From assembly GCF_000012285.1 (NCBI RefSeq), contig NC_007181.1:643370-667369 (forward strand): DNA of 24,000 nucleotides, given 5' to 3'. The notes beneath the pieces were generated by a model. That model did not search any database. It was not told the DNA's origin and saw only the letters and a program-made list of their open reading frames with translations. This DNA comes from Sulfolobus acidocaldarius DSM 639. Lineage in GTDB: Archaea; Thermoproteota; Thermoprotei_A; Sulfolobales; Sulfolobaceae. This document shows, piece after piece, positions 2,267-7,102 of this stretch. The first letter of the stretch is position 1. Every line of letters starts with the position of its first letter. Position numbers and translations under genes: made by a program.

Positions 2267-3627
2267 TTGCTTTCTACAAATTTTTTTAATTCTTCAGCTA
2301 AAAGCATTGCTTTACTTTCGTCTTTAGCCTCTACTATTATCCTAATGATAGGTTCTGTACCACTCTTTCTGACCAGGAACCAAAAGTCTTCTCCTATTAT
2401 TTTAACACCATCAATAGTAATCACTTTTCCCCTATTACCATAGGACTTTATAAGATCTCCATATAACCCCTGTATGTCATATTGTGGTTTCAAATTTACC
2501 TTAGTTTTAACTAGATAATATTTAGGTAATCTATCAAATAGTTGGGCTGAAGATAAATTCTCACTTGCCATAAATTCTAGCATTAAGGCAAAGCTCATTG
2601 CACCATCTCTAACGTATTGATGTGGTGGATATATGAAACCACCGTTTTCCTCAAAACCTGCTAATCCTTTCTCGTCCTGTAGCTTATGTGCAATGTCAAC
2701 ACTACCTACTTTTGTCCATAAAACCTCAAGACCATATTTTGCTAAATACTCCTCTGTGAGACTAGAGCTGGATACCGCAGTAACAATTACTCTACTACCC
2801 TTAGGGTTCTTCACATGACTCCAATATGATAATAAGGTCCCACTTCTGTCTCCCCACTGGACTCTGCCTTCGGAGTCAAGAAAAATTGCTCTGTCAGCAT
2901 CTCCATCATGGGCTATGGATAGATCGGCTTTTAGTGTTAATGCAATTTTTGCGGTTTCTTTTAGAGATTCAAATGTGGGTTCAGGCATTCTCGCTGGAAA
3001 TAACGGATCTAAATTTCCATTTAGGGTATATACTTTACATCCTAACTCTTTTGCTACTAATGGACTTGTTAACCCTCCTACACTATTTGCAGAATCAATT
3101 AATACAGTATATCCTTTTTTAGATATCTTCTCAGTATCTACATGCTGTAATATCCCCTTCACATAGGTTGGGATCACTCTATCTTCTTTTTTTACGTCAT
3201 TAGTAAGAGCTTTCCATTCAATGCTATTAAACCTCTCACTAAACAAAATTTCCTCTATTTCATTTTCTTTCTCTCTTCTTATTTCAACTCCGTCCTTATC
3301 TATTACTTTGATTCCATTATACTCTGGCGGATTATGACTTGCGGTAACAATTACACCCGCATCATATCCTAACGTTTTTACAGCATACTGTAAAGTAGGA
3401 GTAGGTGCTAGTCCGCCATAAAAAACGTCTACTCCTGTGCTTAATAGTCCCGCTTCAACCAGTTTAACATACATATCTCCTCCAGCTCTAACATCTCTAC
3501 CTACCAGCAGTTTACTGCCCTTACCAAAGAACGAGCCTATGGCTCGGGAAAGTTTAAGGACAAGCTCTGGAGACAGATCCTTATTTATCAAGCCTCTAAC
3601 TCCATCAGTGCCGAATAATTTACCCAT
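2263..3627 (-). CDS. glmM: phosphohexomutase (phosphoglucosamine mutase / phosphomannomutase family)
   Basis: N-terminus [12 protein letters not shown], active-site serine loop [13 protein letters not shown], metal loop HDGDADR and sugar loop GFEENGG. Full length, 454 aa. Confidence 0.85.
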
Positions 3628-3646
3628 ATTTTTAACTAGCTTACCA

Positions 3647-3657
3647 AATTATATAAA
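3647..3657 (-). promoter_or_regulatory. TATA box of the glmM promoter (near-leaderless transcript)
   Basis: The reverse strand reads TTTATATAATT, centred about 25 nt upstream of the glmM ATG (3627). This is the usual Sulfolobales TATA-to-start spacing for leaderless mRNAs. Confidence 0.5.
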
Positions 3658-3780
3658 CGTAATTCTTCTATTAATTTTAAGGGTCAAAAATCCTTCATAA
3701 ATTTTGTACAACGAAGACTATTTCGAAAACAGTTATGTTATGAAAAACTATGTTTTTTAAGTCAGCATTCGAAGACATGG

Positions 3781-3835
3781 AAAATCAAAAATGTGTAATC
3801 TTAGTTGCCTAAGTCTTATACTAATGGCTAAGATT
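3781..3835 (-). terminator. hairpin plus T-tract downstream of the glycosyltransferase gene
   Basis: AATCTTAG (3797..3804) pairs with CTAAGATT (3828..3835). An alternative inner hairpin is CTTAG-TTGC-CTAAG (3800..3813). On the minus strand these are followed by TTTTTGATTTT (complement of 3781..3791). Confidence 0.35.
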
Positions 3836-3862
3836 TGTCCTGTGATGTCATGGACATAATTT

Positions 3863-4921
3863 TTAACTTAAACTTTTATAGAGCTCAAGCACCTTTAAAG
3901 ATACATTCCTCCATCTCCATTCTCTAGAAATAGAGATATTATTCTCCCCTATCTCTTTCCTTACTTTAGGGTCTCTAAGCTTCTCCACAGCATCCTTCAG
4001 GTCCTGGCAACTGGAAATCACGAATCCGTTTACCCCATCCTTTACTATTGTCGATAAAACCTTAGCTTTATTACCGACTATCACTGGGACTCCCCTGACC
4101 ATCGCCTCCTTTATGACGATACCTTCTGCTTCTATATCTGAAGTAAGAATAACAGCCAATGACTTATCCATCAGGGAGTACTTCTCCTCCTCAGTGACTA
4201 CGCCTAAATATCTCACTTTGTCCTCAAGACCCAATTCACTAACTCTTGTCATAATCTTCTCTAGATAGTCCTTATCCCTAACTTGTCCTATCAGGATAAG
4301 CTTCACGTTCAGGTTTTTAATACATTCAATGGCGAAGAGCTGGTTTTTCTCAGGACTTATTCTACCAATATAAAGTAAATAGTCTTCAAAACCTTCGGAT
4401 TTGGGATAATTAAATGCCATATCATCAACTCCGTTCGGGATTACGACTATCTTAGAGCCGTCATACCCAAGGTTTATCATTTCCTCCTTCTCCCATTCAC
4501 TTACTGCAATTAATTTATCGACTCTCTTTCCTATGTTTCTCTTTAACCAGTTTATAACTCTACCCTGATCACTTACAAAAATGTGGTGTGGAGTCATTAC
4601 TAATGGTGCTTCTACCGACGGTAAAGAGAAAAAGAGAAAAGTGTAGAGGTTCCACGTACTGAACTTCCTCCCTAAATTATGAAAGTGGAGAACGGAAGGA
4701 GAATCTCTATAAATCCATGTTCTTTTATGTCTTACTACTTTTATTCCATCCATAATCTCGAATGGAATGAGCTTCTCTCTTTCAGTGTACGTATCTCTCG
4801 TTGTATGAACTTCAACGTCTATAGACATTTTAACTAGTTCCCTACTTAAATTGAACACATGGACTTCTGTACCTCCTCTCACTGGAAGAAAGAGTGGGGT
4901 CAACATCCAGACCTTATACAT
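3863..4921 (-). CDS. GT-B fold glycosyltransferase, family 4-like
   Basis: 352 aa. The N-terminal GGxxxH-type motif ([16 protein letters not shown]) and the C-terminal [19 protein letters not shown] (E-x7-E region) are typical of GT4. A GGATGAT SD-like element lies 3 nt before the ATG. Confidence 0.8.
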
Positions 4922-5209
4922 GAATCATCCTTTCCTTATCAATAACATGAAGTATAACATTAAAACCCTTACAGTATTTCAAAAATCCTCTCAATCTGAT
5001 CTATGTATCTTTCCGATAAATTAGCAGAGAACAACAATTTAAAGGCATAAACTGATTTTTATGCAGAATATCCGATAAAAATTCAATAATTTTATGCTAA
5101 TCATATTTGATTGTCTTCTTTCAACTAAATGCATATTTCTATTTCAAAAATTAATGTTTACATAGTCTATAACTCCTAATTATAACTGTAGTATTGGGTG
5201 TGAAGATAG

Positions 5210-5434
5210 CGAAAAATAAGACGCGTTATTAAATACGACGACTATATTATACGTGAGATTAAAGGGTGGTATTATGTGTATAAGCCAGGGAATATGAACT
5301 ATGAGATAAGGGAAACTTACGTTGGTTCCTTAATTGATGTAATTAAGACTTACCTAAAATTGAAAGTTGGGGTATTAGGGGATACCCCTAACCCCACAAC
5401 GCCGGGGGTGGGATTTGAACCCACGCAGGGATAA
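5210..5434 (+). pseudogene. SSV-type (partitioning) integrase N-terminal fragment, int(N), reading into the tRNA-Ser 3' half
   Basis: The open frame from 5210 reads [74 protein letters not shown]. There is no ATG until 5294. The tail GVGFEPT is the reverse complement of the tRNA T-arm translated. The YYVY...YVGxLxDVxxTY pattern resembles what I remember of fusellovirus-type integrase N-termini. Confidence 0.5.
5351..5399 (-). terminator. imperfect hairpin plus T-tract immediately 3' of tRNA-Ser
   Basis: The inner stem TTAGGGG (5375..5381) pairs with CCCCTAA (5385..5391) around an ATA loop. It is extended by GGGG (5369..5372) pairing with CCCC (5392..5395). On the minus strand it is followed by TTTCAATTTT. 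Confidence 0.35.
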
Positions 5435-5483
5435 CCCTACTGGCTCTCAAGGCCAGCCCCTTGGACCGCTCGGGCACCCCGGC
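5400..5483 (-). tRNA. tRNA-Ser (anticodon UGA), class II, no intron, CCA not encoded
   Basis: Hand-folded cloverleaf. The acceptor GCCGGGG pairs with CCCCGGC, with discriminator G. The anticodon stem is CUGGC/GCCAG with loop CUUGAGA. The long variable arm is AGGG-UUAU-CCCU. The T-arm is GUGGG-UUCAAAU-CCCAC. Confidence 0.93.
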
Positions 5484-5510
5484 AGCATTATATAGATACT
5501 TTTTCACCCT

Positions 5511-6074
5511 TTAATACTTAACCGCTAGAACTAGTGAATAACCCTTGGCTCTCTTATAAACCTTCACTTCATTTAGAAACTTAGAAAATTCCGTAATAAC
5601 ATTTGCCTCTCCCTTATATACCACTACCTCTATTATTCCTCCAATTTCCAAACGTCTTCCTGCTTCTTCAGAAAGTCTTTCTATGAATTCTTTTCCTGCT
5701 TTTAAGGGAGGATTAGAATAAATTCCATTAAATTTTAGATCATTTGGCACATTTTCAAACAGATTACTTTTAATCACTGTTATTCTATTACTAAGATTGT
5801 ATTTACTAACATTTTTCGACGTAAAGTATATTGCTTTCTTATCAACATCGATCATGTAGACTTTAAGGTTCTGGTTTACAAGAGCAATGTATATACCTAT
5901 TGGTCCATATCCACATCCTATATCGGCTACAATTCCATGGTTAGGCAAAACTAAGTTCTCTAGCAAGATTCTTGTACCTAGATCTAGCTTATCTTTGGAA
6001 AATAAACCTCTACTACTTTCCAGGCTTAGAGGTATTCCGTTTACTACATCATTCACTATTATCTTTTCGCTCAT
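5511..6074 (-). CDS. class I SAM-dependent methyltransferase, RsmC/RlmG-like (MTS domain)
   Basis: SAM motif I VADIGCGYGPIG and motif IV NPPLKAG (the NPPxxxG of N2-guanine/N6-adenine methyltransferases). The start is 1 nt after the cbf5 stop, so it is co-transcribed with rpl14e-cbf5. Confidence 0.8.
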   Translation of the reverse strand: MSEKIIVNDVVNGIPLSLESSRGLFSKDKLDLGTRILLENLVLPNHGIVADIGCGYGPIGIYIALVNQNLKVYMIDVDKKAIYFTSKNVSKYNLSNRITVIKSNLFENVPNDLKFNGIYSNPPLKAGKEFIERLSEEAGRRLEIGGIIEVVVYKGEANVITEFSKFLNEVKVYKRAKGYSLVLAVKY

Positions 6075-6075
6075 C

Positions 6076-7102
6076 TCATTTCCAACTTTTTGGGTATATG
6101 TCTCTTTCCATAAAAATTCTTTTAGGCCTTATAACTTCGCCTTTTTTACCAGATTCTAATTGCTTACTTTCTACAATACTCTCTCCTATAGCCACAAGTT
6201 CACCCTTAAGAGTTAGAACCGCTACGTCTTGATTTTTACGAAAGTTCTGATAAGCCAGTATACCAGGTAGGTTTAATTTAGCCCCATATGTTATTGCGTT
6301 TACTGCCGTATCGCTCACTATAACTTTTGGAATTCCGCACACCCCGTACTCCATAGGGAGCAGAATTCTTCTCAACTCACTTTCATCTTTACAGTTTCTG
6401 TATAGGTATAATGATTCTGAAACTTCTTGGAGTGTAACCATATTAGTTTTTTCTGTAAATATACCAGACCTAATTCTTCTCAACTCTCTCATATGTGAAC
6501 CACAGCCTGCTATAACACCCACATCATGACACAATTTTCTCATATAAGTTCCTGCGTCAGACTGGACTCTTAGTAGTATTAGTTTATCCTGCATATCTAA
6601 AATATCGATAGCATAAATTCTCCTTTTTCTTATCCTTCTTTTCACTGAGGATCTTACTGGCGGTTTCTGATATATTTCACCTACGAATTGACTTATTATT
6701 TCTTTTAACTCCTTTTGGTCTACATTACAGTGCATTTGCAATAAGCAAATGTATTCCTTTCCACTCTTACTTATGTAATTCATTAATTTTGTTGCGTTCT
6801 CTAATCCTATCGGTAATACTCCTGTAACCTTGGGATTTCCCCACCCGTTATACGGGTTCTAGGGTTCCTCCATGTCCTGCTTTGGTAATGTTAAAAAGCT
6901 TTTTTACCCAATAAGCTACCTCATGGCTTGTTGGACCAGGTGGTTTATCTAAATTGATTATGGAGTTTTTTATCAAAGATTCGATTGGTCTCTTATCTGC
7001 ATAATAGCCAAATTTCTCTTCAGTGTCTTCTTCTCTCAAGATTTTCCATCTATTTTCATAACTACAAAAAGAATCTATCTTGTTTATAAATTCATAAATC
7101 AT
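6076..7102 (-). CDS. cbf5: H/ACA RNP pseudouridine synthase Cbf5 (TruB family), two exons joined by removal of a 22-nt intron
   Basis: Exon 1 (7102..6858) ends at ...LDKPPGPTSHEVAYWVKKLFNITKAGHGGTL. Exon 2 (6835..6076) begins DPKVTGVLPIGLENATKLMNY... and carries a C-terminal PUA-like region. The exons total 245+760 = 1005 nt, giving 334 aa plus a stop. Confidence 0.88.
6836..6857 (-). other. mRNA intron in cbf5 (archaeal splicing-endonuclease type); boundaries can slide by 1 nt
   Basis: The mRNA segment ACCCGUAUAACGGGUGGGGAAA (22 nt, not a multiple of 3) contains an in-frame UAA. Removing it restores GGTLDPKVTG. It contains the internal hairpin ACCCG-UAUAA-CGGGU. Confidence 0.7.

Follow-up and report, generated by a model that had tools for sequence, protein, structure and literature searches.

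The question raised by this locus is why a plus-strand reading frame runs into the 3′-end of an intact tRNA gene encoded on the opposite strand. The window, the 24,000 nt stretch of the Sulfolobus acidocaldarius chromosome analysed here, includes a single tRNA gene, tRNA-Ser(UGA), located on the minus strand at 5399..5484 according to ARAGORN and at 5400..5483 according to Rfam, where RF00005 is matched over the full model with 58.7 bits. The gene is intact. The converging frame is open from 5210 to a TAA stop at 5432..5434 and predicts a product of 74 aa. The in-frame starts within it are a GTG at 5276 and, as the earliest ATG, that at 5294. From 5400 to 5434 the frame, here its final 11 codons and the stop, is the tRNA gene read in reverse complement, with the acceptor 3′ strand, the T arm and the start of the variable arm, the last of which contains the TAA. 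An initial annotation had described this 74 aa frame at 5210-5434, its lack of an ATG before 5294 and its overlap with the tRNA at 5400..5434, and all of these hold, with the overlap consisting of 11 codons and the stop. Rfam searches and promoter and terminator scans of 3600..5600 found the tRNA only, though the promoter scan is of the sigma-70 type and not informative for archaea.

The feature at 5206..5434 (plus strand) is the N-terminal fragment, int(N), of an SSV-type (type I, self-partitioning) integrase. The 74 aa translation matches Pfam PF07935 (SSV1_ORF_D-335) with an E value of 1.4e-19 and 70.5 bits against a cut-off of 22, and the match spans profile positions 3-66 of 68. It also matches phrog_5127, which is annotated as an integrase in PHROG. 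In tblastn searches of phage records, 44 fusellovirus records were matched, and the best match was the int gene of SSV1 (E 8e-15), over the part annotated there as the 'integration site'. Pairwise BLASTP aligned residues 8-71 with residues 9-71 of SSV1 Int at 59% identity (E 2e-21), and a plasmid search gave a single match, the integrase of pSSVi (52%). The proposal in the initial annotation that this is an integrase N-fragment is therefore borne out by the profile matches and the identity to SSV1 Int, and the BLASTP and HMM comparison suggested there found similarity to SSV-type N-termini.

The SSV1 integrase (ORF D-335) consists of an N-terminal PF07935 domain and a catalytic PF16795 domain, and its gene is whole, encodes 335 aa and targets a tRNA-Arg, whereas only the first 75 or so codons, in broken form, are left here and the target is tRNA-Ser(UGA). 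The two are alike in a YVGxLxDVxxxYLK segment and in a GFEP peptide encoded by the T loop of the tRNA. A GFEP peptide and a YVGxLxDVxxTY-like segment had been named in the initial annotation as typical of such fragments, and both align in SSV1 Int. In the present fragment the overlap with the tRNA starts at residue 64, and the integration site annotated for SSV1 runs from Int residue 64 to residue 78, so att lies at the same protein position in both, in line with the earlier statement that these integrases carry attP inside their own gene. Int(N) and the tRNA gene converge, and the int(N) frame runs on into the 3′-end of the tRNA. The segment at 5400..5431, which is common to the 3′ part of the tRNA and the int(N) coding frame (an overlap read directly, with no strand of its own), is the surviving att copy. 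As a TAA at 5432 would be impossible in an intact int gene, the crossover core must end by 5431, and this segment would be the largest possible extent of the old core inside the tRNA, at most 32 nt.

Lesions in int(N) were read from a mafft alignment that also included four int(N) paralogues from this genome. Positions 5206..5208 are ATA where the paralogues carry ATG, and an extra T at 5229/5230 is a 1-nt insertion relative to all four, causing a +1 frameshift at codon 9. The original N-terminus lies in the other frame (..KIAKNKTRY) and joins the 5210 frame at KYDDYIIRE. On this alignment the gene starts at 5206 and not at 5210, and it enters the frame open from 5210 only via the insertion at 5229/5230; that frame is thus the downstream part of a frameshifted gene. 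In nucleotide BLAST searches similarity to the paralogues begins at 5209, and 5209..5285 is approximately 91% identical to the four copies. In the paralogues a TTATAAA box precedes the ATG by about 40 nt, and 5161..5205 (plus strand) aligns weakly with the stretch that contains it. This piece is probably what remains of the promoter and other sequence upstream of int, and it would be the leftmost recognisable part of the element; the assignment is tentative because BLAST similarity starts only at 5209. With the start codon lost, the frame broken and no purifying selection detected (see below), int(N) is now a non-functional pseudogene drifting at the neutral rate.

In the geometry of SSV-type integration the element is expected to the left of the tRNA, and its far end should show another copy of att and then, on the plus strand, int(C). 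The orientation of int(N) agrees with the initial placement of the element on that side. No second att copy was found in the window, where a 20-nt T-arm probe occurs once with 3 mismatches allowed and no direct repeat involves 5385..5445; the initial annotation had likewise seen neither a second att nor an int(C) there. Genome-wide searches, which it had suggested, covered the single contig of 2,225,959 bases and gave neither for tRNA-Ser(UGA). Matches of at least 19 nt to the 47-nt att half all fall within other genuine tRNA genes. Three int(C) matches to PF16795 above the cut-off were detected in the genome, at 427, 1232 and 1305 kb, all at least 200 kb away from the scar (648 kb). As a positive control the same att-probe design was applied to all int(N)-linked tRNAs of the genome. 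It recovered the distal att of an element at tRNA-Arg(GCG) (44/44 nt, 5.7 kb off and beside int(C)) and that of an element at tRNA-Glu(TTC) (46 nt, 32.5 kb off). The probe so validated found no distal copy for tRNA-Ser(UGA) anywhere in the genome. Neither the partner int(C) nor the att direct repeat of an excisable element is found at this locus. The fragment is a solo int(N), because searches that find the partner ends of three other elements find none for this one.

Int(N) fragments are frequent in this genome. PF07935 matches above the cut-off are carried by 16 of the 47 tRNA genes, all convergent on the tRNA 3′-end, and their states vary from intact small ORFs to stop-bearing and 5′-truncated forms. 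Only 3 of the 16 have an int(C) partner and the other 13 are solo. The three partitioned elements, each with int(C) and an att partner, are located at tRNA-Arg(GCG) (genome positions 1300342..1306072, 5.7 kb), at tRNA-Glu(TTC) (395126..427658, 32.5 kb) and between two tRNA-Gln(TTG) copies (1231711..1240470, 8.7 kb). An older, stop-riddled int(N) lies beside the last of these (1231530..1231739), and the tRNA-Gln(TTG) locus suggests tandem integrations. The element at tRNA-Arg(GCG) carries an int(N) of the same family as that at tRNA-Ser(UGA); the first 77 nt are approximately 90% identical at the nucleotide level, and the geometry at the tRNA is the same. It differs in still having int(C) (PF16795, E 1.3e-58) and a distal att that is exact over 44 nt, both of which the tRNA-Ser(UGA) copy lacks.

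In the att-proximal half the closest paralogue is instead the int(N) at tRNA-Ser(GGA) (542383..542565), with YVGSLADVVETYIKLK against a 16-residue counterpart. It differs in its locus and tRNA and in having kept the ATG. The tRNA-Ser(GGA) and tRNA-Ser(UGA) genes are 85% identical, and the closest att-proximal paralogue being located at such a similar gene indicates that the int(N) tail tracks the tRNA target. At 499997-500100 a further int(N), with an internal deletion, runs straight into a tRNA 3′ half that is not part of any tRNA gene. The tRNA-Leu(UAA) gene, which carries an int(N) of its own, is about 500 nt away. Over its first 54 nt the deleted copy shares 91% identity with the tRNA-Ser(UGA) fragment.

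The same scar is present in the one other species of the genus that was compared. In this sister species a segment corresponding to 4922..5510 (589 nt) is matched at 88% identity and the gene context is kept, so the integration predates the split of the two species. The sister int(N) retains the ATG and does not have the extra T, though it shows a 1-nt deletion of its own and another two indels near the tRNA; the lesions are thus lineage-specific. Between the two species int(N) has 28 substitutions in 186 aligned sites (0.151), with 13 gap columns. At 1017 four-fold degenerate sites of ten flanking genes the divergence is 0.101, and by this comparison int(N) is drifting at a rate at least as high as the neutral one. 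The most variable part is the 33 nt adjoining the tRNA (5366..5398). The tRNA itself has a single change in the 86 positions of the ARAGORN span, at 5399, which is outside the Rfam span, and none in 5400..5483. Comparison of the locus among relatives had also been proposed at the outset; it revealed an occupied site in the sister species, and the sequence up to the tRNA is not strictly conserved. The reading of a solo int(N) left after decay fits the two inactivating lesions and the neutral divergence.

In eight other genera unrelated sequence begins exactly at the 3′-end of tRNA-Ser(UGA), and in one genus (genomes G003 and G015) about 20 codons of int(N) are left at the same tRNA. The full scar, the vestige of about 20 codons and the unrelated sequence look like successive stages of erosion, which may go back to one or to several integrations. 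On the 5′ side of the tRNA the genes for a methyltransferase, Cbf5, L14e and an Lhr helicase are kept in 8 genera. The cbf5 gene (6076..7102, minus strand) is present as two ORFs, 6848..7102 and 6076..6783, and tblastn found the same split in all relatives examined. The 3′ side of the tRNA is a synteny breakpoint (loci L025-L040), with the downstream genes of every genus examined mapping to a different region of the S. acidocaldarius genome. No empty site was found within the genus, where the only congener is occupied, and with a different downstream gene order in the other genera the comparison gave no left boundary for the insertion.

The fragment is thus, with high confidence, the attL-side scar of a lost integrative element, a fusellovirus-like virus or plasmid. 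The element would have carried an SSV-type tyrosine integrase with attP within the int reading frame. Recombination with the 3′ part of tRNA-Ser(UGA) would have rebuilt an intact tRNA gene and split int in two, leaving int(N) reading into the tRNA 3′-end and int(C) at the far left end in window coordinates, beside the duplicated 3′ segment of the tRNA. Deletion and decay would later have removed the main part of the element together with int(C) and the distal att. This succession of steps is inferred, and so is a loss by deletion instead of rearrangement. With neither an integrase nor a second att, excision would have been impossible and the element trapped. About 230 bp of int(N) has persisted; the final 32 nt belong to the tRNA and are therefore safe from loss, which explains why this end remains, and the remainder is still eroding. 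No intact donor with an attP for tRNA-Ser(UGA) was found in the phage, plasmid and IMG/VR collections, and IMG/VR gave no relative. The best phage match, SSV1 (59%), and the only plasmid match, pSSVi (52%), are not close enough to name the type of element.

Other explanations are less satisfactory. A chance ORF antisense to the tRNA and unrelated to integrases would fit the short length of the frame and nothing else, and it is ruled out by the PF07935 match, by the 44 fusellovirus records recovered by tblastn and by the four int(N) paralogues that 5209..5285 matches at approximately 91% nucleotide identity. Little credence is given to the possibility that an inversion or translocation at the element or at att moved the int(C) end away, where it later decayed. 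Inversions driven by SSV-family integrases are reported in Thermococcales (PMC5495485), and such an event could be read from the gene order, which is kept on the 5′ side of the tRNA in 8 genera and differs on the 3′ side in every genus. Sulfolobaceae genomes are, however, heavily shuffled, which makes a break in synteny at one tRNA weak evidence, and no orphan 3′ half of tRNA-Ser(UGA) or unpaired int(C) occurs anywhere in the genome. With 13 of the 16 int(N) solo, routine decay also fits better than 13 separate rearrangements.

Almost no credence is given to the remaining possibility, that the fragment was retained for a function, either as a 52 aa protein starting at the GTG at 5276 that might, for example, block related integrases, or as a 3′ trailer or terminator of the tRNA. 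The N-terminal domain of SSV-type integrases is reported to mediate oligomerisation (Zhan et al. 2012, 2015), and this would suit a blocking protein. Inside the scar, some 45 nt beyond the end of the tRNA, the tRNA strand has a T-rich tract that would suit a terminator. Against a function, the 33 nt beside the tRNA are the most variable part of the region and eight genera have unrelated sequence there. Public assemblies include 104 contigs on which the 52 aa ORF (5276..5434, plus strand), located within the pseudogene, is annotated as a gene; these contigs, however, reflect near-clonal strains (PMC5554439). The lost start codon and shifted frame, the different frame-breaking indels in the sister species, and a divergence at least equal to that of four-fold sites with 13 gap columns all argue against a retained function of either kind. 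The 90%-identity cluster of the 52 aa ORF also holds 394 aa proteins (P0002-P0004), which are unrelated P-loop proteins placed there by a clustering artefact and not a full-length integrase. For annotation, the 52 aa ORF produced by gene callers is a pseudogene remnant and not a gene.

Adjacent to the lost-element scar, on the element side and between it and the core genes, is agl16 (3863..4921, minus strand), with spacers of 235 nt and 288 nt. Its product is a GT4 glycosyltransferase that matches the NCBIfam Agl16 equivalog with 639 bits (cut-off 575), and Agl16 acts on the S-layer N-glycan, where it is the enzyme that adds the terminal glucose (PMC8993221). Orthologues were found in 8 of 25 other genomes of the family, at 44-59% identity, and the distribution is patchy. 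Compared with the sister species, agl16 is the fastest-evolving gene of the neighbourhood, with a four-fold divergence of 0.198 against a mean of 0.10. This rate, the patchy distribution and the position between scar and core genes would support agl16 being surviving cargo of the lost element, an origin that nevertheless appears unlikely. The window probe and direct-repeat scans gave no att or int(C) trace to the left of agl16, its G+C content is not distinctive, no homologues were found on Sulfolobales plasmids or viruses, and none of the orthologues in five other genomes is near an int(N). The closest Agl16 orthologue outside the genus (59%; locus L043, G034:C19:407238-411290) also lies on the integration side of a tRNA gene, here tRNA-Leu(CAA), with its end 32 nt from the tRNA 3′-end and no int(N) nearby. 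If agl16 were cargo, a step of N-glycan synthesis would have been gained in this lineage by integrase-mediated gene capture at tRNA-Ser(UGA).

Beyond correct annotation the fragment has little significance. It preserves the trace of an integration at tRNA-Ser(UGA) that is older than the split of two Sulfolobus species. The lesions that arose independently in the two, and the shorter vestige in another genus, provide an example of the erosion of such scars. The genome has been regarded as poor in mobile elements (PMC5554439); scars at 16 of its 47 tRNA genes point to heavy use of tRNA genes as landing sites.

Features of this kind are already known, ordinary, common and well documented in Sulfolobus-type archaea. 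The same explanation, an element trapped and degraded with int(N) left behind, has been given for Sulfolobales (PMC3119797, section 9), and solo intN fragments are listed at several tRNAs of S. islandicus (PMC3718332, table 5). Gene capture and solo intN overlapping Sulfolobales tRNA genes are attributed in these two papers to She et al. (1998, 2001, 2004). In Sulfolobales such a solo intN converges with an intact tRNA and overlaps its 3′-end, occurs without int(C), a second att or element genes, and is read as what is left of a vanished element. The fragment at tRNA-Ser(UGA) is an instance of this group and shows no difference of substance from it.
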